Positions 3,274 through 52,209 of a DNA stretch of 64,000 nucleotides are shown piece after piece; the first letter of the stretch is position 1, and the number at the start of each line of letters is the position of its first letter. The stretch is from Candidatus Levybacteria bacterium RIFCSPHIGHO2_01_FULL_41_15 (lineage in GTDB: Bacteria > Patescibacteriota > Microgenomatia > Levybacterales > UBA12049). The stretch covers positions 15,747 to 79,746 of the forward strand of contig MFNV01000002.1 of the NCBI GenBank assembly GCA_001782165.1, written 5' to 3'. Position numbers and translations under genes: made by a program. The notes under the pieces are model-generated. The model was not told the DNA's origin. It did not search any database and saw only the letters and a program-made list of their open reading frames with translations.

Positions 3274-3969
3274 ATGAATTTTTTTCTAATTTTTATTGCA
3301 ATTTGCCTTTTTATAAGTTTATTTGTTATTTACTATCTTTCGCGTGATGATCTGATTTTTCTTAGAAAGGATCTTTCAACGGAAAAGATTTTTAACATAG
3401 CTTTTTTAGCTTTTTTTGCGGGGCTTTTTTTCTCAAGACTTTTCTATGCGGCTTTTTATTCTCTCAAAATGTTTACGAATCCTCTGGTGTTTTTTTTATT
3501 CCCTTATTTTCCCGGACTTGTATTTTCAGGCGGTATAGTCGGAGGATCTTTGTTTCTGGTCTTTTATTCCCGCCTTAAAAACCTTCCCCTAGGCAGGATT
3601 TTTGATTATTTTTCAATAAGCACACTCTGTTCTCTTCCCATAGGATACTTGGGATATTTCATTTTATCGGGGAAAACTCTTATGTCTTTTGTTCCCGTTT
3701 TCATTGTTTTAAGCTACGTTGTTCTTGTTTATGTTTTTTTTAAGTTTTTGTATAGGTATATTCAGAAGGGAGTCATAAAGGACGGAAGTGCGGGTCTTAT
3801 TTTTCTTGTCTTATTTTCCTCAGTTTCTCTTATTGCAAATATCTTTTTGAGTTTTAAGAATATGATTTTTTTGAAAGATCCAAATAATTTTCTCTTAAGT
3901 TTAACGCTGTTGGTTTCGCTCGTTTTGTTTATCAGGCAGGAGAGAATCATAAGGTTTGCGAGAAGATGA
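3274..3969 (+). CDS. integral membrane protein (possibly Lgt-like; SGGIVGGSLF motif)
   Basis: 231 aa, multiple TM helices; GG-x-x-GG motif is reminiscent of the prolipoprotein diacylglyceryl transferase signature, but similarity is weak. Confidence 0.3.
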   Translation: MNFFLIFIAICLFISLFVIYYLSRDDLIFLRKDLSTEKIFNIAFLAFFAGLFFSRLFYAAFYSLKMFTNPLVFFLFPYFPGLVFSGGIVGGSLFLVFYSRLKNLPLGRIFDYFSISTLCSLPIGYLGYFILSGKTLMSFVPVFIVLSYVVLVYVFFKFLYRYIQKGVIKDGSAGLIFLVLFSSVSLIANIFLSFKNMIFLKDPNNFLLSLTLLVSLVLFIRQERIIRFARR

Positions 3970-4751
3970 ATATAAAAATAATCTATGAGGATGAGGATAT
4001 TTTGGTTATTGATAAACCCTCAGGAATTACAGTAAATAGGGCAGATACAGAAAAAGAGGAAACAATACAGGATTGGGCAGAACATTATCTTAAAATCACA
4101 AATCCCAAATTACAAACTCCAAGTAAATTACAAGATTCAAACAATAAAAAAAAATTGGAATTTGGTGCTTTGGATTTGGAATTTGCCATAAGGGCGGGGG
4201 TGGTGCATAGGCTGGATAAGGAAACTTCAGGGCTTTTGCTTATTGCAAAAAATCCGAAGTCTTTTTTGGCTCTTCAGAAACAATTTAAACAAAGGAAAGT
4301 TGAAAAAGTATACCTGGCTCTTGTTCATGGGGAAGTGAGGCCGGATAGAGGAGAGATAAATGTGCCGGTTGGAAGACTTCCTTACAACAGAACAAGATTC
4401 GGAATAGTCGTAGGAGGCAGAGACTCTGTAACAAGTTACAGAGTAATTTCCAATTTCCAATTTCCAATTTCCAATGAAAGATTCACACTTCTTGAACTCT
4501 ATCCCAAGACTGGGAGGACACATCAGATAAGAGTTCACCTAAAATACATTAATCATCCGGTTTTTTCGGATCCTCTCTATGCCGGCAGAAAAACAGCAAG
4601 AAAAGATCGCCAAATTCTCCCCCGTCTTTTTCTCCACGCTTCAAAAATCTCTTTTCAACATCCTAAAACAAACAAGATAATTTTTCTTGAAAGCCCGCTC
4701 CCACAGGAACTAGTTAATTTTTTATCGACTCCTTCCGAGGTGTCAATATAA
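3966..4751 (+). CDS. RluA-family 23S rRNA pseudouridine synthase
   Basis: Catalytic motif HRLDKETSGLLLIAKN and conserved RluA/RluD core; 4-nt overlap with the upstream ORF. Confidence 0.85.
   Translation: MNIKIIYEDEDILVIDKPSGITVNRADTEKEETIQDWAEHYLKITNPKLQTPSKLQDSNNKKKLEFGALDLEFAIRAGVVHRLDKETSGLLLIAKNPKSFLALQKQFKQRKVEKVYLALVHGEVRPDRGEINVPVGRLPYNRTRFGIVVGGRDSVTSYRVISNFQFPISNERFTLLELYPKTGRTHQIRVHLKYINHPVFSDPLYAGRKTARKDRQILPRLFLHASKISFQHPKTNKIIFLESPLPQELVNFLSTPSEVSI
4447..4474 (+). repeat. 4 perfect tandem copies of heptamer tttccaa inside the rluA-family CDS (encodes ISNFQFPISNE)
   Basis: Seen directly; unit length is not a multiple of 3, so any copy-number change shifts the reading frame. Confidence 0.8.
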
Positions 4752-4770
4752 ATCCACCTCCCAGGTGGGA
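4733..4770 (-). repeat. REP-like palindromic element, inverted copy of the repeats flanking the RAYT gene at 19.2-19.9 kb
   Basis: Its reverse complement reads tcccacctgggaggtggatttatattgacacctcgg; the copies at 19197 and 19927 read ccacctgggaggtggattgctattgacacctaggg and cacctgggaggtggattcatagcggcacctagggg; overlaps the stop codon of the rluA-family gene. Confidence 0.65.
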
Positions 4771-7420: not shown

Positions 7421-7446
7421 ATGTCAAGATAGAAATATTATAATAA

Positions 7447-7480
7447 TAGCTACTAGCAACTAGTGACTAGTAACTAGTTT
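7447..7480. repeat. array of four ACTAG units at 7-nt spacing (actagca actagtg actagta actagtt) with embedded ACTAGT/AACTAGTT palindromes, immediately upstream of yebC
   Basis: Seen directly; related ACTAGT-centred palindromes occur at 10894, 46112 and 51985. Confidence 0.6.
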
Positions 7481-8203
7481 ATGAGCGGACATTCTAAATG
7501 GTCTCAGATTAAAAGACAGAAAGAAAAAACCGATATAAAAAGAGGACTTACTTTTACCAAACTTGCTAATGCAATTACAATTGCAGTGAGGCAGGGTGGG
7601 GAAATAACGGATCCTTCTCAAAACTTCAGACTCAGACTTGCTATTGATATGGCAAGAGCCTCAAATATGCCAAAAGTGAATATTGATAGGGCAATCCAGA
7701 GGGGAGTTAAAAAGGGGGAAGGGGACATACAGGAAGTTGTCTATGAGGGTTTTGCTCCGGGAGGGGTTTTGTTAATAATAGAGGCTGCGACAGATAATCC
7801 CCAAAGGACAATCTCGGAAATAAAAAGTATTTTTAATAAAGCTGGTGCAAGCTTCGGCCAGCCAGGATCTGTTTCTTATCAATTTGCGCAAATGGGACAG
7901 ATAGTAATTAATAAAAATGGAAAATCGTTTGAGGAGATTTTTGAAATGGCCTTAGATCTTGGAGCAGAGGATATAGGGGAGACAGAGAAAAAAGTTATTG
8001 TTTATACAAAAGTTGAGGATTTATCAAGAGTAAGGGATAATCTCTTGGAAAAAAAATTAAACGTAGAAGATGCGCGTCTCATAAGAAAGCCTAATGTTCA
8101 AGTTGAGGTTGGAGGAGAACAATTAGGTAAGATAAAAAATTTCCTAGAAACAATAAATAGCTTAGATGATGTACAAAAAGTTTATTCTAATTTAAAACAA
8201 TAG
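7481..8203 (+). CDS. yebC: YebC/PmpR-family DNA-binding regulator
   Basis: N-terminus MSGHSKWSQIKRQKEKTD and overall 240-aa architecture are characteristic. Confidence 0.9.
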   Translation: MSGHSKWSQIKRQKEKTDIKRGLTFTKLANAITIAVRQGGEITDPSQNFRLRLAIDMARASNMPKVNIDRAIQRGVKKGEGDIQEVVYEGFAPGGVLLIIEAATDNPQRTISEIKSIFNKAGASFGQPGSVSYQFAQMGQIVINKNGKSFEEIFEMALDLGAEDIGETEKKVIVYTKVEDLSRVRDNLLEKKLNVEDARLIRKPNVQVEVGGEQLGKIKNFLETINSLDDVQKVYSNLKQ

Positions 8204-11838: not shown

Positions 11839-12210
11839 ATGGATAACAAATTTAGATTTGAAGACTTAAACGTATATCAAGAAGCGTTGAGATTTGTAGA
11901 CAGCATATACTCTTTGACTTCCAAATGGCCAAAAGATGAAATTTTTGGATTAACAAATCAATTTCGTAGGGCTTCAGTATCGATTGCGTTAAACATAGCT
12001 GAAGGGACTAGTCGTACCAAGAGGAACTTTAGGCATTTTCTGGATCTATCTAAGGGATCGTGTTTTGAGTGCGCTGCAATCTTATCAATTCCTAGAAGCA
12101 GGAAATATATCAATCAAGAGGATTTTGATTCACATTATGATTGGGTTAATAAACTTGCCCGCATGATAAGCAAATTAAAAACTTCATTACGAATAACCAA
12201 TAACGAATAA
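11839..12210 (+). CDS. four-helix-bundle protein (23S rRNA intervening-sequence protein family)
   Basis: 123 aa; LNVYQEALRFVDSIY ... SVSIALNIAEGTSR ... FRHFLDLSKGSCFECAAIL matches the TIGR02436-type four-helix-bundle family. Confidence 0.7.
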   Translation: MDNKFRFEDLNVYQEALRFVDSIYSLTSKWPKDEIFGLTNQFRRASVSIALNIAEGTSRTKRNFRHFLDLSKGSCFECAAILSIPRSRKYINQEDFDSHYDWVNKLARMISKLKTSLRITNNE

Positions 12211-12220
12211 CAGACTAACC

Positions 12221-13150
12221 ATGAAATTGTTGCCCGATTTGATCGACGAATTCCTAGAATATCTTGAGATTGAAAGAAACTGCAGCAAACTTACTATAAG
12301 AGATTACAGGCATTATCTTGAGGTTTTCAATGACTGGTTTTCTAAAAACTCTTCAGGCCAGTCGATAAAAAATTTAGATCTTCAGACAGTTCGAAAATAC
12401 AGGGTTTATCTTTCAAATAAAATTGATAAGAAAGGATCAACTCTTAAAAGAATAACACAAAATTATTATGTGATAGCCCTTCGCTCTTTTCTAAGATACC
12501 TTATAAAAAACGACATAAAAACTTTAGAACCATCAAAAATAGATCTGCCAAAAGCAGAAAGCAGAAGCTTAAAGTTTTTAGACAGAGACCAAATAGACAG
12601 GCTTGTGATATCCATAGATACTTCAGAACCTGAGGGCAAGAGAAACAGAGCGATTTTGGAACTTCTCTTCTCCACCGGTCTTCGTGTTTCAGAATTGGTT
12701 TCTCTTAATCGGGACAAAATAAATTTAGACCGTCGAGAATTTGGAGTTATTGGCAAAGGAGGAAGGGCTCGGGTTGTTTTTATTTCCGATAGGGCGGCTC
12801 AATGGCTTTCGGAATATTTTAAAACTCGCGAGGATATCTACGATCCCCTTTTCATTCGTTATTCCGGAAAAGAAATTCCCGAAAACCGGGGAGAAAAAAT
12901 GAGACTTACCGCCCGATCAATTGAAAGAATTGTTAAAAAATATGTGAGAGTGGCGCGTTTGCCGGTGGATGCAACAGTTCATACTCTTCGCCATTCTTTT
13001 GCAACGGATCTTCTCACAAACGGCGCTGACCTTCGCTCGGTTCAGGAAATGTTGGGCCACAAAAATATCTCAACAACCCAAATCTACACCCATGTAACAA
13101 ATAAGCAACTCAGGGATGTGCATGAGGCATTTCATAGTGGTAATAAGTGA
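12221..13150 (+). CDS. tyrosine site-specific recombinase, XerD/XerC-like
   Basis: N-terminal core-binding domain and C-terminal catalytic motifs (RHSFATDLL, LGHKNISTTQIYTHV). Confidence 0.85.
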   Translation: MKLLPDLIDEFLEYLEIERNCSKLTIRDYRHYLEVFNDWFSKNSSGQSIKNLDLQTVRKYRVYLSNKIDKKGSTLKRITQNYYVIALRSFLRYLIKNDIKTLEPSKIDLPKAESRSLKFLDRDQIDRLVISIDTSEPEGKRNRAILELLFSTGLRVSELVSLNRDKINLDRREFGVIGKGGRARVVFISDRAAQWLSEYFKTREDIYDPLFIRYSGKEIPENRGEKMRLTARSIERIVKKYVRVARLPVDATVHTLRHSFATDLLTNGADLRSVQEMLGHKNISTTQIYTHVTNKQLRDVHEAFHSGNK

Positions 13151-13233
13151 GAATTTATCCTGTTCCCTGCCCGCCTTTGGAGGGAGTTCATCGAAGGATC
13201 CACGAGGTTTTCCATTTTAGGAATAAATAAAGG

Positions 13234-13893
13234 TTACCAGCACTTGGAAGTTTCCGAGGACCAGACGGCATAAGCCCAGGGATCTCCGGAGCCGGTAACT
13301 TGGCTTGCACAATTTTCGGGAGTGACGATCTCACCCCAGACAGAATCGCCATCGCGTGTGGGATCAATAAAGTTTTTGTCAGCATCATCATAATTTTCTG
13401 GGGTACAGTGGAGGATTATTTTATACTCAACCCCGTCTGATTTGTAGAGAAAACCAGCATGATCTGAATTGCAGTTGTTATTTTTGCTGCCCGGTGTATG
13501 TAGTCGCGGATCCTGCGGTAGCCTTTTTATATGATTCGGTGCCAAGTTAGGGATATAACCATTTGGTCCTTCGTAACCCATATTGCCGTAATCAACAGCA
13601 TCACCAAAAACTTCGTTGTTAACGCCGGTCAAAGGATAATTGCCGTTTACTGCCATGTAGGCTTCAAGGGCCCTTTTTACTTGGGAGAGCTGAGTTTTTC
13701 TTTGGGCATCCCTTGTTTGTGCCATCCGTTTTCCCGGATTAACAACAACCAATACCATAGCTGCTAAGACTCCTAAAACAGCGATGACGATTAAAAGTTC
13801 AATTAGGGTAAATCCCTGTCGGCCCGGGGTTTTTACTTGAGATTTATTGCGCTTTTTCTGACAATTAATAACTTGCAGCTGGGCAGGTTTCAT
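13234..13893 (-). CDS. type IV pilin/pseudopilin (prepilin-type N-terminal cleavage/methylation domain)
   Basis: G-FTLIELLIVIAVLGVLAAMVLVV prepilin signal after a ~26-aa basic leader. Confidence 0.65.
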   Translation of the reverse strand: MKPAQLQVINCQKKRNKSQVKTPGRQGFTLIELLIVIAVLGVLAAMVLVVVNPGKRMAQTRDAQRKTQLSQVKRALEAYMAVNGNYPLTGVNNEVFGDAVDYGNMGYEGPNGYIPNLAPNHIKRLPQDPRLHTPGSKNNNCNSDHAGFLYKSDGVEYKIILHCTPENYDDADKNFIDPTRDGDSVWGEIVTPENCASQVTGSGDPWAYAVWSSETSKCW

Positions 13894-13949
13894 TTAGTTT
13901 AGTATAGTATAAAATGAAAATTTACAAAATTTACTTAAACGCCTTAGAT

Positions 13950-15029
13950 TTACACTCCTTTTCTTGCTGTCTCATAAAATTCAACTAGGCTTGTAACAAG
14001 CTCAGGGTTCCCTGACAGAAGGGCAATTTCCTCTGTTCCTGCCCGAACTCCACTTTGCATAAGATTATGAGAGCCAAACATTACGATTTGCCCATCCACA
14101 ATCAAAAGCTTTGCATGGAGTCTGCCATCAAATTTTTTAAAAGGAATTCGTTGTCTTTTAACGCCCATAAAAAATCTATTCCATAGATTAATTAACTTGT
14201 ATACACCCTCTACAACTGTCGGCATTAATACTTCAACGTCCACTCCCCTATTCTGGGCTTTTTTAAGAGTCCTAAGAAATTTTCCATCCGGAGTAAAAAA
14301 AGAAATATTTCTTACACTTTGCCGGGCACTATCAACTAGATTTGCGGCAGTATCAAGTACCAAGGATTCACCAGGTTTTCCTCTGTCTATAATAAGACTA
14401 CTGCCGTCTGAGAAATCAACCTTATAATCTTTTTTGGGTTTATTTTCATTTACTCTGGCAAACTGAGCTATAAGAGCCTCGACAATTTCTTGATCAGTAA
14501 CCTTCACCACGAAATCTATTCCCTTAAATGATGCATCGCTTATATTTACTCCTCCAATCCATGCAATATTATCAACAATGTACATTTTTATATGGTTTCG
14601 GCCGAAGAACGGAAGAACTCTCTGAAGAGAAGCAGGAGAGTTTAGAAAATTTACTTTTACCCCCACTTCGGAAAGCCTTCTATAAGTTTGGTCATTACGA
14701 TTTGCACAGAATCTATGGTATCCGTTTCCCAAAAGCGGAAAGTCTTTTTTGATATTTATTCCCGGTTCAGATGAAAGCCTTGAAAACCAGTCAATGTTGA
14801 GTCTTGTATCAAGACCTTTCTTAACAGCTTCTTCAAAAATATGAAAAAATGCACTACCCGGATGGCCTGTCTGCATATCCATTGCCTGTCCCCACACTCT
14901 TTCTTTTGCTCTTTGTGTTTCGAGTCTAAAGTCGGCAAGAAACTCAAATGGTGTAAGAACCGCAAAATTCGGGGCAGGTTCTCTCCTCGCCTCTAAATTA
15001 AATGGATAATTTACTTCAACGCTGTTCAT
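13950..15029 (-). CDS. phospholipase D superfamily protein with two HKD motifs (soluble)
   Basis: HIKMYIVDNIAWIGGVNISD and HAKLLIVDGQIVMFGSHNL (HxK(x4)D(x6)GSxN); no TM segments. Confidence 0.7.
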   Translation of the reverse strand: MNSVEVNYPFNLEARREPAPNFAVLTPFEFLADFRLETQRAKERVWGQAMDMQTGHPGSAFFHIFEEAVKKGLDTRLNIDWFSRLSSEPGINIKKDFPLLGNGYHRFCANRNDQTYRRLSEVGVKVNFLNSPASLQRVLPFFGRNHIKMYIVDNIAWIGGVNISDASFKGIDFVVKVTDQEIVEALIAQFARVNENKPKKDYKVDFSDGSSLIIDRGKPGESLVLDTAANLVDSARQSVRNISFFTPDGKFLRTLKKAQNRGVDVEVLMPTVVEGVYKLINLWNRFFMGVKRQRIPFKKFDGRLHAKLLIVDGQIVMFGSHNLMQSGVRAGTEEIALLSGNPELVTSLVEFYETARKGV

Positions 15030-16042: not shown

Positions 16043-18532
16043 TTATCCCCTCCCAATAAAAGTGGCGGATGCGACGTGGTCGTTTGGATTTGAATACCTC
16101 ATCAAGATAACTCCCTGGGTGTCCCGGGAAAGTCTGGGAATTGATTTAATCTCAAGCTTTACGACCTGACCCCTTTTGGATGTAATAATAATTTCCTCAC
16201 AGTTTGTCGGAATGACTTGAGCAAAACCTACTTTTCCGGTTTTTGAAGTTACCTTTGCAACTTTTACTCCCTTTCCTCCCCTTACCTGGCCCCTGAATAA
16301 TTTACACGCTGTTTTTTTGCCGAGACCGTTTTCCATAATTGTCAGAAGATCATCGTCCCCCGCTTTATTTATAACATCCATACCAATTACAATATCTTCC
16401 CCCTCAAGTCTTATTCCCCGAACTCCCCTAGTTGCTCTTCCTGTAGGCCTTACTCCCTTTTCGGAAAATCTAATCGCTTTACCGTTTTTAGTTGCCAAAA
16501 TAATATCATTCTCACCGCTTGACAACTCACTCCATGTGAGCTCGTCTCCTCTATCAAGCTTTATAGCAACTATTCCGTTTCGCCTTATATTTTCAAAATC
16601 TTTTATTTTTGATTTTTTAACCGTGCCTTTCCGTGTTGTTAAAAATACATATTCTCCTCTTTCATCTTTTCCCGAGCTTATAAAAGATTCGACTTTCTCT
16701 CCCTGCTCAATATTTAATAAATTGACTATTGCCGTGCCCTTGCTTGTTCTTTGAGATTCTGAGATATCATAGGCTTTTATTTGATAAACCTTACCTTTGT
16801 TTGTAAAGAAAAAAAGATTGTCGTGAGTTTCTGCATAACGGATATGCGATATGGTATCCTCTTCTTTTGTAGTCATACCTTTTATTCCTTTTCCTCCCCG
16901 ATGCTGAGTTTTAAAGGAAGTTAAGCTCTGTCTTTTTATGTAACCTGTTTCTGTAAGTGTGATCACTGTCGGTTCGTTTGGGATAAGATCCTCGTCCGAA
17001 AATTCTCCGACTTTGCTTTTGAAAACTTTGGTTCGTCTTGGGTCTTGGTATTTTTCTTTAAGTTTGAGGAGCTCGTCCTTAACTACTTTAAGAATTTTGG
17101 GCGGATTTGCAAGAAGGTCTTCAAGATAGGCAATTGTTTCTTTGACCATGATATACTCGTCTTCAATTTTCTGCCTTTCAAGTGCTGCAAGACGTCGAAG
17201 CTGCATGTCCAAAATTGCCGTTGCTTGAATTTCCGAAAGTTTGAATTTTCTAATAAGATTCTGCTTGGCTTCTTCCTGATCTTTGGATTTTTTGATGGTT
17301 TCAATTACCGCATCAATATTGTCAACTGCAATCTTAAGCCCCTCGAGGATATGAAGTCTTGCTTTTGCTTCCCGTAATTCAAATTCAGATCTTCTCGTAA
17401 CGACAAGAAATCGGTGCTTTAGGTATTCCTCAAGTATTGTCTTAAGATTTAGGGTTTGGGGAGTTCCGTTGACTAGAGCAACAATATTTGCCGGGAAGGT
17501 TGTTTGAAGACTAGTATGTTTGAATAAGTTATTAAGTACTTTTCTTGGTGCTGCATCGCGCTTTAACTCCACAACCACTCTCATTCCGTGTCTGTCGGAT
17601 TCATCCCGAAGATCTGAGATTCCATCTATTTTCCTTTCTTTGGCAAGCTCTGCGACTCGGGCGACTAAAAGCGCCTTATTTACCTGATAAGGAAGTTCGG
17701 TTATTATAATTGCCGATTTTCCCTGACCTATGTCTTCAATTTCTGCTCTTCCCCTTATCAAAATTCTTCCCCGACCCACTGTATAAACGTTTTTTATTTC
17801 GGTAATGTCGTAAATCGCACCAGCCGTCGGAAAATCAGGGCCTTTTATGAACTCCAGAAGCTCATCTATGGTTACATTACTTGAGAAATAGGTTTCTGAT
17901 ATCTTTGATACTTTTTCATCTTTTGATACTTTTGTCCTGTCAATAGTAAATACGATTGCATCTATGACCTCGGAGATGTTATGAGGCGGAATCTTGGTCG
18001 CCATTCCCACAGCAATTCCCTCAGATCCCATGAGAAGAAGGTTTGGTAATTTTGCTGGAAGAAATACAGGTTCTTTAAGTGTTGCATCAAAATTTTCAAG
18101 GTAATCGACCGTTTCTTTATCCAAATCAAAAAGCATTTCGGAGGTTATCCCTGCCATTCTTGCTTCCGTATACCTCATTGCAGCGGGCGGATCTCCATCC
18201 ATTGAGCCGAAGTTTCCCTGTCCGTCAATTAAAGGATAACGAAGAGAAAAATCCTGGGCAAGACGAACCAGCGCATCATAAATAGGCATATCTCCATGCG
18301 GATGATATTTTCCCATTACTTCTCCGACAATCTTAGCGCTTTTTGAGTATTTTGCAGAATGAGAAAGTCCCATTTCGTGCATTGCAAAAAGAATTCTTCT
18401 GTGTACCGGTTTTAGACCATCTCTTACATCAGGAAGTGCGCGCTGGACAATAACAGACATCGCGTAGTCAAGATACGCTTTCTTCATTTCCCTCGTTATT
18501 TCTGTTTTGTTTACTTTGCCAATATCAGCCAT
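16043..18532 (-). CDS. gyrA: DNA gyrase subunit A
   Basis: 829 aa; N-terminal ...[28 protein letters not shown]... Confidence 0.95.
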
Positions 18533-18616: not shown

Positions 18617-19186
18617 TTACTTCTTAGAGTAGTTGGTGATGGATTTTTGAATATCTTCTAAGGCAACAGATTTATCCATCCAATTTCTGATTTTGACCCA
18701 CTTTCCCGGTTCGGTTTTTTTGTAGTTTTCGAAAAAATACTTAAGATCATCTTTTGTCTTTTGCGGAATATCCGATACGTCATTATAGTCTTTAAACTTT
18801 GGATCAATCTTGGGTAATGGCACTGCAATTATTTTATTGTCCACTCCTGCCTCATCTTCCATTTCAAGCATCCCTATTGGTCTTGATGGAATTACAACGC
18901 CCGACACCACAGGTTTACTACTTAAAACCAACACGTCCACCGGATCACCATCATCTGCTAAAGTGTTGGGAATAAATCCGTAATTAAAGGGATAATTCAT
19001 CTCTGTATAAAGAAATCTGTCAACGAAAATTACACCCGAGTCTTTGTCAAGCTCGTACTTAACCGAAACACCCTGCGGTATTTCTATAAAAACATTTACA
19101 TCCTCCGGCGGATTCTTCCCCACCTTTATCTTCGATAGATCCATAAAAATATTATATTCGAATATTCCCCAGCTCACAAGTCTCAT
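18617..19186 (-). CDS. ppa: inorganic pyrophosphatase
   Basis: Family I PPase motifs ([21 protein letters not shown]). Confidence 0.9.
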
Positions 19187-19196
19187 TTTCTCCTAT

Positions 19197-19962
19197 CCAC
19201 CTGGGAGGTGGATTGCTATTGACACCTAGGGATTTTTAATTAAAAATAAGAGGTATATGCCAGGACGTTTGCTCCCACTAGTTGAAGGTCAAATTTATCA
19301 TGTCTTTAATCGGGGAATAGATCATCGTCCTACATTTACCGATAAGTTAGAGTTGAAAAGAGCCAAAGCTGTTATTGATCATTACAGATTTGTTACTCCC
19401 CTAGTCAGATTTTCCAAATTTCTTAAACTTCCCATTGAGGAAAGAAATAGACTTCAAACCAAAATAAAAGCCGGACCTAAATTAATAGATATTCTAAGTT
19501 TTTGTCTGATGCCAAATCATTTTCACCTACTTTTAAGACAAGTTTATGATAAGGGGATATCAAAATTTCTATCTAATTTTCAAAATAGTTATACAAGGTA
19601 CTTCAATATTAAAAATGAAAGAGACGGGCCGCTTTTCTTAGACCAGTTTAAGGCGGTTTTAGTTGAAACGGATGAGCAATTAATACATGTTTCAAGGTAT
19701 ATCCATCTTAATCCCATGACTTCATATCTGGTAAAAAATTTTGACTCGTTGGTTAATTACTCATGGTCGTCGTTGCCTGAATATGTTGCGCAAAAAGAAT
19801 CGTTTTGCGAGACCAGCACGATCCTGGGATTCTTCAAAGACTCAGGAGAGTATGAGGCTTTTCTAAAAGATCAGGCAGGATACCAAAGAGAGCTTAATGC
19901 GATCAAACATCTTCTTATAGATTAATTCACCTGGGAGGTGGATTCATAGCGGCACCTAGGGG
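19197..19962 (+). mobile_element. RAYT-like unit: IS200/IS605-family HuH tyrosine transposase gene bracketed by two direct REP-like palindromic repeats
   Basis: Flanking repeats at 19197-19231 and 19927-19962 each contain the hairpin CCACCT-GGG-AGGTGG plus cacctaGGG; a third inverted copy lies at 4733-4770. Confidence 0.65.
19257..19925 (+). CDS. REP-associated tyrosine transposase (IS200/IS605 TnpA-like, Y1 HuH)
   Basis: IYHVFNRG N-terminal motif, HuH motif MPNHFHLLL, downstream Tyr-containing helix (NSYTRYFN). Confidence 0.7.
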   Translation: MPGRLLPLVEGQIYHVFNRGIDHRPTFTDKLELKRAKAVIDHYRFVTPLVRFSKFLKLPIEERNRLQTKIKAGPKLIDILSFCLMPNHFHLLLRQVYDKGISKFLSNFQNSYTRYFNIKNERDGPLFLDQFKAVLVETDEQLIHVSRYIHLNPMTSYLVKNFDSLVNYSWSSLPEYVAQKESFCETSTILGFFKDSGEYEAFLKDQAGYQRELNAIKHLLID

Positions 19963-20015
19963 TTTATCTCTTCCGGCGGATTGTCCCCGACGGGAATTTT
20001 TTTAACATCCATACT

Positions 20016-22600
<2,585 letters not shown>

Positions 22601-24885: not shown

Positions 24886-25625
24886 AGAAAATTTGAAATA
24901 ATTCCTGCAGTTTCTTCGGGATTTGTGAATTGAGGGGAATGGCGGGCATTATTGATTATATATAATTTGCTATTGATTATTTTTTGATTTAATATTTTCG
25001 CATCAGATAAAGGAGTAATAGAATCTTTTCTTCCCCATATTATAATAGTAGAAGCAAGTATTTTTTCTATTTCAAGAGTTTTGTCTGCCTCCATTAGATT
25101 TATCATTGTTTTTTTCATGTTTTCGGAGGCATCTTTGTAGTCGGTCTCTCTTGCCAGAAAATATAAAAGGTTTTTCGCTGTTTTTGATGATAAAAATTTT
25201 CTTCCGGTTTTTGCAATTGCTTTAAACACCACTCTTTTAACTTTTAGGGGCAGTTTGTCATGAAAAACTCCGGCACTGTCAATTAAAACTAGTTTTGAGA
25301 TCTTATCTTGATATTTTAGGGCAAAAGCCATGGCAATACGTCCTCCATTTGAATGCCCGATCAGATTAATGCTTCCTGTTTCATTTTTAACTATATTAAA
25401 AAGCCAATCTACATAGTCTTCAAGCGTCCATGGATTTTCTATTTTTTTAGTCAAGCCCGGAATCTTAAGGAGTACAGGATTTAGCTTACTCTGTTTAAGA
25501 TGAGCAATAAAAGGGCTCCACTTTTCAAGCGAATAAGTCCAGCCATGGAGTATGTATATTGATGGTTGATGATTGAGGATTGATGATTTTCTCATAAGCC
25601 GAATTTTTTTCTTCTTTTCTCCCAC
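24882..25625 (-). CDS. alpha/beta-fold hydrolase
   Basis: Nucleophile elbow LIGHSNGG. Confidence 0.6.
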   Translation of the reverse strand: MGEKKKKIRLMRKSSILNHQPSIYILHGWTYSLEKWSPFIAHLKQSKLNPVLLKIPGLTKKIENPWTLEDYVDWLFNIVKNETGSINLIGHSNGGRIAMAFALKYQDKISKLVLIDSAGVFHDKLPLKVKRVVFKAIAKTGRKFLSSKTAKNLLYFLARETDYKDASENMKKTMINLMEADKTLEIEKILASTIIIWGRKDSITPLSDAKILNQKIINSKLYIINNARHSPQFTNPEETAGIISNFL

Positions 25626-32635: not shown

Positions 32636-33517
32636 TTGTCAAGAATCGGTTTGTGTTATTGTAAAGATATGGTTATAGCTCTTTTATTTTTTCTTTTTAT
32701 CATTGGAATATGCGTGGGGAGCTTTTTAAATGTCTTGATTGATAGAATTCCACAGGGGCAGTCCCCCCTTAAAGGAAGATCATATTGCGACCATTGCAGG
32801 AAGTCTCTTGCCTGGTATGACATGGTTCCCCTTTTCTCTTCCGTTTTTCTAAAAGGAAAATGCAGATACTGCAAGTTGTCTATCTCATCTTATTATCCTC
32901 TGGTAGAGTTAGTGACAGGTTTAATGTTTGTTTTGACATTTCTATATTTAAGCAATCAGCAACTAGCAACCAGCAATCAGTTTAACAATATAATAATAGA
33001 GCAATTTAACAATTTAGCAATAAATTACATTTATTATTTATTTATTCTTTCCTCCTTCATAGTAATTTTTTTTACGGATCTTAAATATGGGATTATCCCA
33101 GATAAGATTTTATACCCCGCCGTACTAATATTTACCATTTACCATTTACCATTTACCATTTATTCTCCAATCCTCAATCATCAACCATCAATTATAAATA
33201 ATATATTCTCTGGAATGGGTGCTTTTTTATTCTTCTTTCTTTTGTACTTTATAACCCACGGGAAAGGTATGGGCTTTGGGGATGTGAAACTTTCCTTTCT
33301 TCTGGGACTTTTCTTAGGATTTCCCAAAATTATTATAGCTTTGTATACAGCATTCTTGACAGGAGCAATTATAGGCTCCATACTGATTATATGGGGAAAA
33401 AAGAAGTTAAGAGGTACTACGATCCCTTTTGGTCCTTTTCTAATCCTCGGAGCCGCGTTAAGCCTTTTTTTCGGAGAATTCATAATTCGTCTGGTTTTAC
33501 CCTGGTTGAACTTTTAG
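32636..33517 (+). CDS. pilD: prepilin peptidase / N-methyltransferase (A24 family)
   Basis: N-terminal Cys-x-x-Cys ... Cys-x-x-Cys zinc-binding segment, polytopic membrane core; carries in-frame low-complexity inserts encoded by 7-nt repeats. Confidence 0.85.
   Translation: MSRIGLCYCKDMVIALLFFLFIIGICVGSFLNVLIDRIPQGQSPLKGRSYCDHCRKSLAWYDMVPLFSSVFLKGKCRYCKLSISSYYPLVELVTGLMFVLTFLYLSNQQLATSNQFNNIIIEQFNNLAINYIYYLFILSSFIVIFFTDLKYGIIPDKILYPAVLIFTIYHLPFTIYSPILNHQPSIINNIFSGMGAFLFFFLLYFITHGKGMGFGDVKLSFLLGLFLGFPKIIIALYTAFLTGAIIGSILIIWGKKKLRGTTIPFGPFLILGAALSLFFGEFIIRLVLPWLNF
32951..32978 (+). repeat. 4 imperfect tandem heptamers (agcaatc agcaact agcaacc agcaatc) inside pilD
   Basis: Seen directly. Confidence 0.7.
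33131..33151 (+). repeat. 3 perfect tandem heptamers tttacca inside pilD (encodes FTIYHLPFTIY)
   Basis: Seen directly; 21 nt keeps the frame, and gain or loss of one unit would frameshift pilD. Confidence 0.8.
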
Positions 33518-35522: not shown

Positions 35523-36947
35523 ATGAAGAAAATAACAGAAAAGAAAATTGGAGTGGGTTCATCTCGCATCACTTCCCACGAATTGCTTCAAAATTTAATA
35601 TTAGGAAGCCGGAGGCATTTGGCAAGTCGTGATGGGGAAAACGAACGATTTTCTGGAAGTGGTGCGGGGTTTACACTTTTGGAGCTATTGGTAGTAATAA
35701 TAGTTATCTTTGTTGTGGGAGCTGTAATTATGGGAACTATTGTTTCGTCTTTGCGCATAGCCGACAAGGCTAAATCTATGGATGTTGTACGCACAAACGG
35801 AAATTACGCTATATCCCAGATGTCCAGAATGATAAAATACGCCGAAGAGTTCAATGGAGTAAGCACAGATGGCGTTGTTTATACCGCAAATTGCAGTTCC
35901 CCAATTGTCATTTCCACACCTGCGGTGGTTTCTGTTCCCTCGCCTCGTTTGGGATTTTTTTCAAGAATTGCAAATTTAATTCAAGGATTTGGCGATCTGG
36001 GCAAGAAAGAAATTTCCTCCGTATTTTCAAAACTTGCAAGCCTAATCCCAATGCTTGATAGCCCAAAAACATTTGTTACGCGTCAAGTTGCCCCCGCAAC
36101 GTCTGCTACTTTAAGACCAACTGGCCCTTGGGCTGAAAGTAGATGGACTAGGACTGGCTGTACAGCTAATTGGCAATGTGTTGATGAGGAAACCTTAAAT
36201 ACTTCAGATTATGTCCAAGCCCCATCATCTGGCAGTACTATTGACTGGTACGCAACCAGTTTCACCCCTCCTGCTGGTTCGACCATTACTGCAATTCGCG
36301 TCTTTGCCCAAGCCCGCAAGACTGATGCTGATACTACCTATTTGCTTCTTGGATATCGCAAATCTGACGGCAGTTTCACCTTTAAAGACCCAGGCGTAGC
36401 ATTAACTACAAGTTGGGCATCAACAGTTCCTTATGCCAGTTGGACAACTAGTTTGCCAGCTGTCAGTAGATTTCCCATCCAAATTGGCATTCAAGCTGGA
36501 GAAGTTTCAACAGTTAGAGTAGCTCAAGTTTGGGCTGAAGTTGACTATATTGCTCCATCACCTACCCCCACCCCAACTCCTACGCCTACACCCACACCCA
36601 CCCCTACACCTACCCCCACCCCAACTCCCACATCAGGGCCTACTCCAACCCCTATCTCATACAATTTCGTAAAAGTAACCGGATTTGACGGTGGAACTAC
36701 GGTTTTTTCCTGTCTTTCGGGGGATCCAGGAGAAATCGCTTCAGAAAGCGGAGAGCTTAAGCAGTCACTTATAGATACAAATTCTGTAAGGGTGGATAAT
36801 TGCTCTATCTATTGTACCCAAGAGGGCTTATCATCCCCCCCTCTTATAAATATATCTTTTACGCTTTCCAAAAAAACAACAAGCCAGTTTTTTGAGCAAA
36901 AAACTGCTATCCCCTTTCAGACATCAGTCGGCATAAGAAACTACTAA
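35523..36947 (+). CDS. large minor pilin-like protein with (PT)n linker and C-terminal globular domain
   Basis: AG-FTLLELLVVIIVIFVVGAV prepilin motif; 17 consecutive Pro-Thr dipeptides. Confidence 0.55.
   Translation: MKKITEKKIGVGSSRITSHELLQNLILGSRRHLASRDGENERFSGSGAGFTLLELLVVIIVIFVVGAVIMGTIVSSLRIADKAKSMDVVRTNGNYAISQMSRMIKYAEEFNGVSTDGVVYTANCSSPIVISTPAVVSVPSPRLGFFSRIANLIQGFGDLGKKEISSVFSKLASLIPMLDSPKTFVTRQVAPATSATLRPTGPWAESRWTRTGCTANWQCVDEETLNTSDYVQAPSSGSTIDWYATSFTPPAGSTITAIRVFAQARKTDADTTYLLLGYRKSDGSFTFKDPGVALTTSWASTVPYASWTTSLPAVSRFPIQIGIQAGEVSTVRVAQVWAEVDYIAPSPTPTPTPTPTPTPTPTPTPTPTPTSGPTPTPISYNFVKVTGFDGGTTVFSCLSGDPGEIASESGELKQSLIDTNSVRVDNCSIYCTQEGLSSPPLINISFTLSKKTTSQFFEQKTAIPFQTSVGIRNY
36561..36653 (+). 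repeat. hexanucleotide ccNacN repeat encoding (PT)17 linker
   Basis: Seen directly. Confidence 0.8.
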
Positions 36948-51631: not shown

Positions 51632-51974
51632 TTTTAACCGATTCAACTACTTTTTTAAAAACCTCAGGATCATTTACGATAAGGTCGCTTAATATTTTTC
51701 TATCAAGCTCGATGTTTGTTTTTTTAAGTTTACTGATAAACTTGCTATAAGGAAGGCCTTCTTTTTTTACAGCCTCGCCTATTCTGGTTATCCATAAGGA
51801 TCTAAAGTCTCTCTTCCTAAGCTTTCTTCCATGAAAGGCATATGCTCCGGCATGAAGCTCTGCTTCCTTGGCAACTTTAATGAGTCTTGACTTAGTTCCC
51901 CTGTATCCTTTGGTTGCCTTAAGAATTTTTTTATGTTTTCTTCTTGAGATGATCCCTCTTTTTACTCTGGTCAT
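51624..51974 (-). CDS. rplT: 50S ribosomal protein L20
   Basis: MTRVKRGIISRRKHKKILKATKGYRG. Confidence 0.9.
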   Translation of the reverse strand: MTRVKRGIISRRKHKKILKATKGYRGTKSRLIKVAKEAELHAGAYAFHGRKLRKRDFRSLWITRIGEAVKKEGLPYSKFISKLKKTNIELDRKILSDLIVNDPEVFKKVVESVKNV

Positions 51975-51984
51975 AAACTAGTTG

Positions 51985-52009
51985 CCAGCTACTAATTACT
52001 AGTAGCTGG
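51985..52009. repeat. 10-bp perfect inverted repeat ccagctacta-attac-tagtagctgg in the rpmI-rplT spacer
   Basis: Seen directly; 11 nt upstream of the rplT ATG; no obvious SD. Confidence 0.6.
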
Positions 52010-52011
52010 TA

Positions 52012-52209
52012 TTATGCTTTTCCAAGCATATGTTTAACTTTTTTTGCAAATTTACCCTTCAGCTGTCCTGGTTCCTTTTGTCTTCTTTGTCTTCTCTTGG
52101 ATTTTATAAGCTTGTGATGGCTTTGATACTGATGGGAAAAAAGAACCTTCCCCTTTTTGGTAATCTTAAACCTTTTACTTACCGATTTTTTTATTTTCTG
52201 CTTTGGCAT
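52012..52209 (-). CDS. rpmI: 50S ribosomal protein L35
   Basis: MPKQKIKKSVSKRFKITKKGKV. Confidence 0.85.
   Translation of the reverse strand: MPKQKIKKSVSKRFKITKKGKVLFSHQYQSHHKLIKSKRRQRRQKEPGQLKGKFAKKVKHMLGKA

Follow-up and report, generated by a model that had tools for sequence, protein, structure and literature searches.

A probable RAYT-type Y1 HuH gene and its cognate hairpin repeats in a Levybacteria genome

Our analysis concerns a 64-kb stretch of contig MFNV01000002.1 from Candidatus Levybacteria bacterium RIFCSPHIGHO2_01_FULL_41_15, a low-GC (~38%) Patescibacteria genome; this stretch is the window, and copy counts given below refer to it unless another scope is named. The window contains a gene for a Y1 HuH protein that is bracketed by two copies of a short hairpin repeat, and it holds a third, solo copy elsewhere (Table 1). 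An earlier note on this DNA had proposed that gene and repeats have the architecture of a RAYT system (REP-associated tyrosine transposase, REP being a repetitive extragenic palindrome), and its description of the open reading frame (ORF), with the signatures YHVFNRG and HFHLLL, is borne out: these occupy residues 14-20 and 88-93 of the protein. The two direct flanking repeats are likewise present and extend, in our repeat search, to a 41-nt pair with 83% identity. Two details needed correction: in the downstream copy the first base of CACCT is 19928 and not 19927, and the hairpin CCACCT-GGG-AGGTGG attributed to both copies does fold in each, but the downstream 5′ arm reads TCACCT and includes a G-T wobble. 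The upstream copy carries its 3′ motif, TTGACACCTAGGG, at 19219-19231, 8 nt past the 17-mer CACCTGGGAGGTGGATT (5 nt past the extended stem); the downstream copy begins at the final base of the Y1 stop codon and has a degraded -35-like hexamer (GCGGCA). The third copy is inverted and lies over the stop codon of an RluA-family gene, as the note had said. It is the source of that gene's last five codons (SEVSI) and of its stop codon, and in the repeat search (4735-4768) it is 91% and 85% complementary to the two flanking copies.

Table 1. Features of the Y1 locus and the three repeat copies in the window
Feature	Position	Strand	Description or basis
Y1 HuH (RAYT-like) gene	19257-19925	+	222 aa; ORF list, Pfam, alignment, fold match
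Upstream (left) repeat copy	19195-19235	+	41 nt; hairpin ATCCACCT-GGG-AGGTGGAT at 19195-19213
Downstream (right) repeat copy	19925-19965	+	Hairpin AATTCACCT-GGG-AGGTGGATT, then GCGGCACCTAGGGG; direct orientation
Solo repeat copy, inverted	4733-4770	-	Overlaps 3′ end of RluA-family gene 3966-4751
Probable sigma-70-type promoter of Y1 gene	19219-19247	+	Consensus match, 10/12
gyrA (left neighbor, outside the element)	16043-18532	-	ORF list
Inorganic pyrophosphatase, ppa (left neighbor, outside the element)	18617-19186	-	ORF list
195-aa ORF (right neighbor, outside the element)	20016-20603	-	ORF list, Pfam
gyrB (right neighbor, outside the element)	20600-22576	-	ORF list, Pfam

The window contains the 17-mer at exactly three places (19198 and 19928 on the + strand, 4751 on the - strand), as against 0.07 occurrences expected from dinucleotide shuffles, and none of 100 shuffles contained three or more. 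Scanning the 64 kb with a profile of 34 oriented copies drawn from many genomes returned the same three sites (E 8e-12, 5e-11, and 4e-9), the next best having E > 8, and neither a relaxed hairpin pattern nor the nhmmer profile found degenerate further copies in the window. Folded as single-stranded DNA, each copy forms a hairpin whose 6-9 bp stem carries a 3-nt loop (ΔG -4.5 to -8.7 kcal/mol, z about -1.7 to -2.7). No Rfam family matches the repeat, so an explanation as an RNA motif gains no support.

Comparison of the protein with the Pfam Y1_Tnp model (PF01797), a check that the earlier note had suggested, gives 34.9 bits (cut-off 23), with a match that ends at residue 150. The HuH motif is H88-F-H90 (nt 19518-19526), and we assign the catalytic tyrosine to Y148 in SRYIHLNP (nt 19698-19700), with N152 at +4. 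H88, H90, Y148, and N152 are invariant across 28 homologs of 59-86% identity, in which the full length is also conserved. The same homologs conserve W170-S-S, Y209-Q, and H218 in a C-terminal extension (residues 153-222), which an AlphaFold2 model renders as helices with a predicted local distance difference test score (pLDDT) of ~90 (86.4 for the protein overall). The best fold match of this model in the PDB is 4er8_A, the E. coli RAYT with a REP hairpin (E 1.8e-6, template modeling score 0.71, root-mean-square deviation 3.0, 182 columns); the TnpA proteins of IS608, ISDra2, and IS200 (2vjv and 2xma are among the fold matches) follow at E 3e-4 or weaker and with much larger deviations. TnpA_REP proteins are separated from TnpA_IS200/605 by an N instead of a Q at +4 of the catalytic Tyr, by greater length, and by an extra C-terminal domain (PMC3333891). 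The Y1 protein has all three of these features, and its assignment to the RAYT-type HuH enzymes rather than to the IS200 type is supported. The Y1 family is large: a word-indexed search lists 6,733 homologs, and cluster representatives (50% identity) number 353 at E <= 1e-30, 5,698 at 1e-10, and 17,725 at 1e-3.

A tblastn search with the Y1 protein gives one match in the window, outside which divergent paralogs may exist, and the identical protein, present on 19 contigs of several assemblies, has a single context, gyrA-ppa-[Y1]-195-aa ORF-gyrB-femAB. Orthologs with 76-77% identity in two other species (loci L209-L211 and L212-L213) occupy the same slot, gyrA-ppa-[Y1]-(hyp)-gyrB-femAB, and retain both flanking repeats in direct orientation. 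Among the three species the neighbors have identities of 84-86% (GyrB), 82-85% (GyrA), 77-83% (Ppa), and 66-68% (FemAB). The proportion of synonymous differences (pS) is 0.72-0.78 for the Y1 gene, and thus saturated, as it is for gyrA, gyrB, and femAB, and nonsynonymous divergence (dN) is 0.13-0.15 for Y1, 0.11-0.14 for gyrA and gyrB, and 0.22-0.28 for femAB. The shared slot, the saturated synonymous sites, and the level of dN together indicate that the Y1 gene has been at this place for as long as its neighbors and is under strong purifying selection. Housekeeping-like evolution of this kind is the defining behavior of RAYTs (PMC5581495, PMC3116915), and the Y1 gene behaves in this way and not like an insertion sequence (IS).

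The earlier note placed the element between ppa and gyrB and described it as splitting a gyrB...gyrA neighborhood. The neighbors are right, except that the 195-aa ORF intervenes before gyrB, but a recent insertion that split the gyrase genes is rejected, since the slot was occupied before the three species diverged. The 195-aa ORF itself matches no Pfam family; it has a 202-aa counterpart in the species of L209 and L210, but L212 lacks it, and there the Y1 gene directly abuts gyrB. In distant lineages the Y1 gene has a different position, again constant within a lineage: two homologs (L216 and L218) adjoin uvrB, with uvrA nearby, another sits between pgi and pilus genes, and a Roizmanbacteria genome has yet another context and a second, divergent paralog 4 kb off. 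Distant homologs of 42-60% identity, some with other hairpins, are also found near gyrB in L130, L147, L154, and L169, at gaps of 109 to ~900 nt and, in one case, 5.5 kb. Adjacency to gyrB or to uvrA-uvrB may reflect inherited position, target preference, or coincidence. E. coli REPs have been reported to bind gyrase.

These findings bear on whether the unit is an IS200-type insertion sequence, autonomously mobile now or recently, of which the solo copies would be decayed or miniature derivatives. Its flanking repeats are direct, on the gene's strand, and ~730 nt apart, which is the geometry and size of IS200 left and right ends, and the upstream and downstream copies are two subtypes, as such ends are; the unit nevertheless sits in an identical slot in three species with saturated synonymous sites, is single in the window, and has no second context for the identical protein among the 19 contigs. 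The Pfam match is to Y1_Tnp, and a sequence-profile search of the PDB yields marginal matches to ISDra2 TnpA alone (E 0.03), but the best fold match is a RAYT, and the protein has Y-x-x-x-N instead of Y-x-x-x-Q and, at 222 aa, a C-terminal extension. Some genomes do hold two paralogs a few kb apart, but these are divergent (44-46% identity to the query, their partners 46-65%) and have their own hairpins rather than being identical copies. We consider a mobile IS200-type element improbable.

The association of gene and hairpins extends far beyond these species. In a metagenome scan we collected 80 loci with Y1 homologs of 35-58% identity, nearly all of which have a hairpin 35-60 nt before the ATG and a second, matching hairpin 5-45 nt past the stop codon. 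The stems vary by lineage (CACCTnnnAGGTG, CCCACTCCGGGAGTGGG, CAACACCGGGTGTTG, AACGATCCGGTATCGTT, AAGAGGTCCGACCTCTT, and others), and the two flanks of a locus agree with each other: at an alignment score of at least 26, upstream and downstream flanks match in 66/79 true pairs, in 14/395 mismatched pairs, and in 0/79 shuffled sequences. Of the 80 loci, 31 have direct flanks and 26 inverted ones, 15 are ambiguous, and eight have flanks that do not match. Direct and inverted orientation are thus both frequent in the family, and the direct flanks of the window represent one of two common states.

For the CACCT-type repeat the 34-copy alignment gives a consensus of a hairpin, 6-8 nt, and then (T)TG(A/G)CACCTnGG. 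This 3′ motif looks like the 5′ arm and loop of a second hairpin. Most copies consist of one hairpin and the half-site (CACCTnGG), but the motif is expanded to a full second, inverted hairpin in the folD gene of L209, and compound palindromes occur in L096, L147, and L166; by analogy, such doublet copies resemble REP doublets or REPINs. The 35-40-nt repeat is nearly unchanged in metagenome-assembled genomes (MAGs) of Daviesbacteria, Roizmanbacteria, Gottesmanbacteria, and other Levybacteria. Among the three sister species it is ~94% identical despite the saturation of synonymous sites, which argues that the DNA element itself is under constraint. L209 and L210 represent two strains that are 97-98.5% identical in nucleotide sequence. 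They nevertheless diverge at the downstream repeat (L209:8669-8808, L210:8669-8782), with eight differing positions within it, and unrelated segments of 95 and 69 nt start straight after ...CACCTnGGGAGTTT. The downstream repeat of L210 is 42/43 identical to a solo copy of a Daviesbacteria MAG (L121:4982-5024), and the difference between L209 and L210 may reflect recent recombination or replacement at the repeat; the 95- and 69-nt segments have no match in any fetched locus.

Solo copies differ between species. The copy at the 3′ end of rluA is present at the same place in a sister species (L222), and the corresponding site is empty in a third (L223); the RluA orthologs P0121 and P0130 also terminate in (P/S)EVSI, and other orthologs have different ends. 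L212 has a solo copy between gyrB and femAB that is not in the window. A copy in the 5′ coding part of degT (L209:14030-14095, L210:14255-14320) is in frame and gives a 14-aa insertion, SPEVAKLAHLRGGI, and a hairpin doublet in folD (L209:4325-4385, L210:3662-3722) is translated as STSEVDEAGTSEV, a net gain of 5 aa; the window orthologs of degT and folD are without these repeat-encoded segments. Two sister contigs (~36-39 kb each) have two solo sites apiece. Other Microgenomates MAGs have solo copies, mostly between ORFs, without a Y1 gene within the fetched 8-kb blocks, and one MAG has repeat copies on three contigs.

Scanning genome contigs for the 17-mer gave at least 119 matches, most of them chance or coding matches in Proteobacteria or other high-GC genomes, and also surfaced the full repeat in other Microgenomates MAGs. 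These unrelated matches, and the presence of only three copies in the window, are what could be said for a chance or compositional coincidence beside a degenerate transposase remnant. That explanation is refuted: three copies are observed where 0.07 are expected, the profile E-values are 1e-9 to 1e-11, the architecture recurs in 66/79 loci against 0/79 shuffled controls, and the intact ORF is subject to strong purifying selection. We also note that MAG contigs of 32-39% GC whose titles read 'uncultured Gammaproteobacteria bacterium (binchicken...)' or 'Pacearchaeota archaeon' (L012, L041, L043, L047, L049, L055, L065, L070, L090, and L103; L066 and L092) carry the full Patescibacteria-type repeat, and one of them, L055, has a Y1 homolog with 54% identity. 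The taxon labels or the binning of these contigs are probably wrong.

The upstream repeat appears to contain part of the promoter of the Y1 gene. A -35 box, TTGACA (19219-19224), lies inside the repeat and is followed by a 17-nt spacer and a -10 box, AAAAAT (19242-19247), that ends 9 nt before the ATG. The same layout of -35-like and -10-like boxes is found in 33/79 homologous loci, where the -10 usually ends 6 nt before the ATG; a predicted -10 this close to the ATG, at 6-9 nt in many lineages, suggests that Y1 transcripts are leaderless or nearly so. TTGACA is kept in upstream copies, and downstream copies show TTGGCA, GCGGCA, or TGCCAC. Because the upstream hairpin precedes the -35 box, it falls outside the mRNA and must function at the DNA level. 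The downstream hairpin lacks a T-run, and no site resembling a terminator was detected.

This arrangement invites a purely regulatory explanation, in which the palindromes beside the gene serve as a promoter operator and as a 3′ stem-loop that ends or stabilizes the mRNA, and the other copies are binding or nicking sites for a host function, without mobilization. The upstream hairpin does abut a TTGACA-17-(-10) promoter and the downstream one does begin at the last stop-codon base, but the latter is without a T-run or any terminator-like site. The very low copy number, the conservation of the repeat over several Microgenomates lineages (unlike the fast-evolving REPs), and the recurrent adjacency of the gene to gyrB or uvrA/uvrB would all suit regulation; solo copies at non-orthologous sites in sister species do not, and the in-frame insertions in conserved enzymes (DegT +14 aa; FolD net +5 aa) are hard to account for in this way. 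The HuH motif and Tyr are invariant, moreover, which argues for cleavage chemistry and not for binding alone. Regulation without mobilization is in our view unlikely.

The fold and motifs of the protein, its synteny, the purifying selection on its gene, the family-wide cognate flanking hairpins, and the presence or absence of solo copies between species lead us to regard the system, with fair confidence, as a RAYT-type Y1 HuH endonuclease/strand-transferase that has been domesticated and fixed in the chromosome, accompanied by its cognate DNA hairpins. As to binding, cleavage site, trans-mobilization, and autoregulation, we infer the following scheme. The Y1 protein would recognize the (C/T)CACCT-NNN-AGGTGG hairpin in single-stranded DNA and would nick and rejoin the strand nearby, probably at or beside the conserved (T)TG(A/G)CACCTnGG; H88 and H90 would hold a metal ion, and Y148 would form the covalent 5′-phosphotyrosine link. 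Short (~35-57 nt) non-autonomous repeats could in this way be maintained and occasionally moved or recombined in trans, while the Y1 gene itself is no longer mobile. Since the -35 box of the Y1 gene falls within the upstream copy, protein bound there probably autoregulates Y1 expression.

Several observations weigh against the RAYT-type assignment or limit it. The NCBIfam model NF047646 (the REP_Tyr_transpos equivalog) gives 44.8 bits (E 1.1e-11), short of its cut-off of 80; judged by its sequence, the Y1 protein is a relative of this model and not an equivalog. HMMER sequence searches of the PDB, with the single protein or with a profile, found no RAYT. The flanks in the window are direct repeats, like IS200/IS605 ends. 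The GTAG-type tag that the earlier note had proposed to look for is absent: none of the 34 oriented copies has GTAG or CGTC, the tags of the REP superfamilies (PMC3733652), and on the 5′ side of the stem the sequence either varies or lengthens the stem (ATCC.../...GGAT). The density of solo copies is low, one in the 64-kb window and ~1 per 18-60 kb overall, and the copy number is counted over 64 kb of the source genome. Repeats of RAYT groups 2 and 3 number 57-140 copies (PMC5581495), and beside these groups the low copy number indicates weak dispersal. Finally, the presence and absence of solo copies could be explained by deletion or ordinary recombination instead of Y1-catalyzed movement.

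The architecture that the earlier note had recognized thus stands with respect to Y-x-x-x-N, the C-terminal extension, the match to 4er8, synteny, and cognate hairpins, and is qualified by the missing GTAG, the score below the equivalog cut-off, the low copy number, and the direct flanks. Its reading of the repeats as REPs holds in that they are hairpins with solo copies; they are not canonical REPs, as they have no tag, one solo copy in the 64 kb of the window, and some copies in coding sequence.

Comparison with E. coli TnpA_REP (the RAYT YafM) and its REPtron (4er8; PMC3333891, PMC3479197) shows a common plan. Both have a Y1 HuH enzyme with one catalytic Tyr and N at +4, longer than IS200 TnpA by a C-terminal extension, the E. 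coli protein being the best structural match to the window model, and both have a single-copy, vertically inherited gene with cognate hairpins that flank it and lie elsewhere in the genome. They differ in that the window protein has no HMMER-detectable similarity to the PDB chain and falls below the NCBIfam equivalog cut-off. The window repeat, unlike E. coli REPs, has no GTAG tag, lies in direct orientation at the flanks, and includes a second half-hairpin/-35-like motif, TTGACACCTnGG; at one solo copy per 64 kb there would be, if the density is uniform, tens per genome at most, against hundreds in E. coli.

The TIRYTs (terminal inverted repeat-associated tyrosine transposases) with their TIRtrons and RAYT groups 1 and 4 (PMC3733652, PMC5581495) are similar in being non-proteobacterial RAYT-like genes with palindromic or inverted repeats that flank them at fixed distance and are unrelated to GTAG REPs. 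They are also similar in modest repeat copy number and a housekeeping-like distribution: the TIR families of TIRYT genes are 'moderately abundant' (PMC3733652), and the flanking 16-mers of RAYT groups 1 and 4 have 12-14 genome-wide copies (PMC5581495). The GGGGWSAS motif of some TIRs is not in the window repeat, and the likeness is one of published description. By analogy, the system appears to work like a RAYT/REPtron and to be closest in detail to TIRYT/TIRtron and the low-copy RAYT groups.

With the IS200/IS605 elements IS608 and ISDra2 the system shares the HuH/Y1 fold, presumably the same chemistry, same-strand hairpins at both ends of a ~0.7-kb unit, and two end subtypes. IS200/IS605 TnpA is a protein of ~130-150 aa and an obligate dimer with its Tyr acting in trans. 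These ISs are multicopy and shift position, whereas the window gene is single-copy and syntenic over saturated synonymous divergence, and their TnpA has Y-x-x-x-Q (PMC3333891) where the window protein has Y-x-x-x-N. A different parallel is offered by the Rickettsia palindromic elements (RPEs), which are also short palindromic repeats in frame within conserved genes of a small genome, where they add short peptide stretches, as here in DegT, FolD, and the RluA C terminus. RPEs are ~100-150 bp and thus longer than the window repeat, and we know of no dedicated transposase identified for them, whereas a cognate Y1 gene is present here. Intragenic REPs are known as well (PMC3733652).

The earlier note considered a REP/RAYT system outside the Proteobacteria noteworthy in itself. 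RAYTs have, however, been reported in 24% of species and in many classes (PMC5581495), so their presence outside that group is not surprising. The TIRYT and RAYT-group surveys (PMC3733652, PMC5581495) and the other literature searched do not mention Patescibacteria, and we found no description of REP/RAYT systems in CPR (candidate phyla radiation)/Patescibacteria in that literature. This is thus a known kind of system, a RAYT with its repeats, in a bacterial group for which no description was found.

A further reading, to which we give little credence, is that gene and repeats form a host DNA-processing module that is kept across the Microgenomates and is not a selfish remnant. In its favor, the hairpin-plus-TTGACACCTnGG site is near-identical across lineages whose Y1 proteins are ~60% identical, the gene recurs beside gyrB (at least four lineages) and uvrA/uvrB (two), and the repeat contains its own promoter box. 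If this were true, solo copies would be single-stranded nick sites for supercoiling relief or signaling, or for the control of replication or repair, and even in-frame copies within enzymes would be tolerated.

RAYTs are the best-known case of a transposase turned into a resident, vertically inherited gene, and the same architecture is now seen in small, gene-dense Patescibacteria genomes. The Y1 family is easy to read, with a short protein, a co-varying cognate hairpin, low copy number, and clear presence or absence between sister species, and it offers a tractable set for the study of hairpin choice by Y1 enzymes, of RAYT autoregulation through a repeat-embedded promoter, and of the tolerance of palindromic repeats in coding sequence. 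For annotation, genes of this kind, now labeled 'transposase' or 'hypothetical', do not belong in counts of active insertion sequences.

The window has other repeats of a different nature. A perfect 25-nt repeat, CAATCCTCAATCATCAACCATCAAT, for which there is no Rfam match, lies at 25558-25582 and 33168-33192, just upstream of two start codons (ATG at ~25546 on the - strand and at ~33215 on the + strand), and relative to the gene the two copies are oriented alike; five repeats of the heptamer ATTTACC (33130-33165) come ahead of the second copy. A 50-nt CTAG-rich leader (ATAATA..AGCTACTAG..AACTAGTTT) occurs at 7440-7489 and 51966-52015 with 80% similarity, where it immediately precedes the ATG start codons of a YebC/TACO1-like gene and a probable rplT (- strand). 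The cumulative GC skew has its maximum at ~13-14 kb (region 11839-14000), where gene orientation converges and where a XerC/D-type recombinase (12221-13150) and a 23S_rRNA_IVP-family protein (11839-12210) are encoded; this could be a terminus/dif region or a local strand effect. The 20-nt repeat TTTACCCTGGTTGAACTTTT is present five times (31907, 33496, 34092, 34579, and 44582; 80-100% identity to the reference copy). Translation of the reference gives FTLVELL, which resembles a pilin N-terminal methylation motif, and four of the copies lie within a cluster of small ORFs downstream of two T2SSE-domain ATPase genes. A tandem repeat of proline and threonine codons occupies 36559-36654 in ORF 35523-36947.

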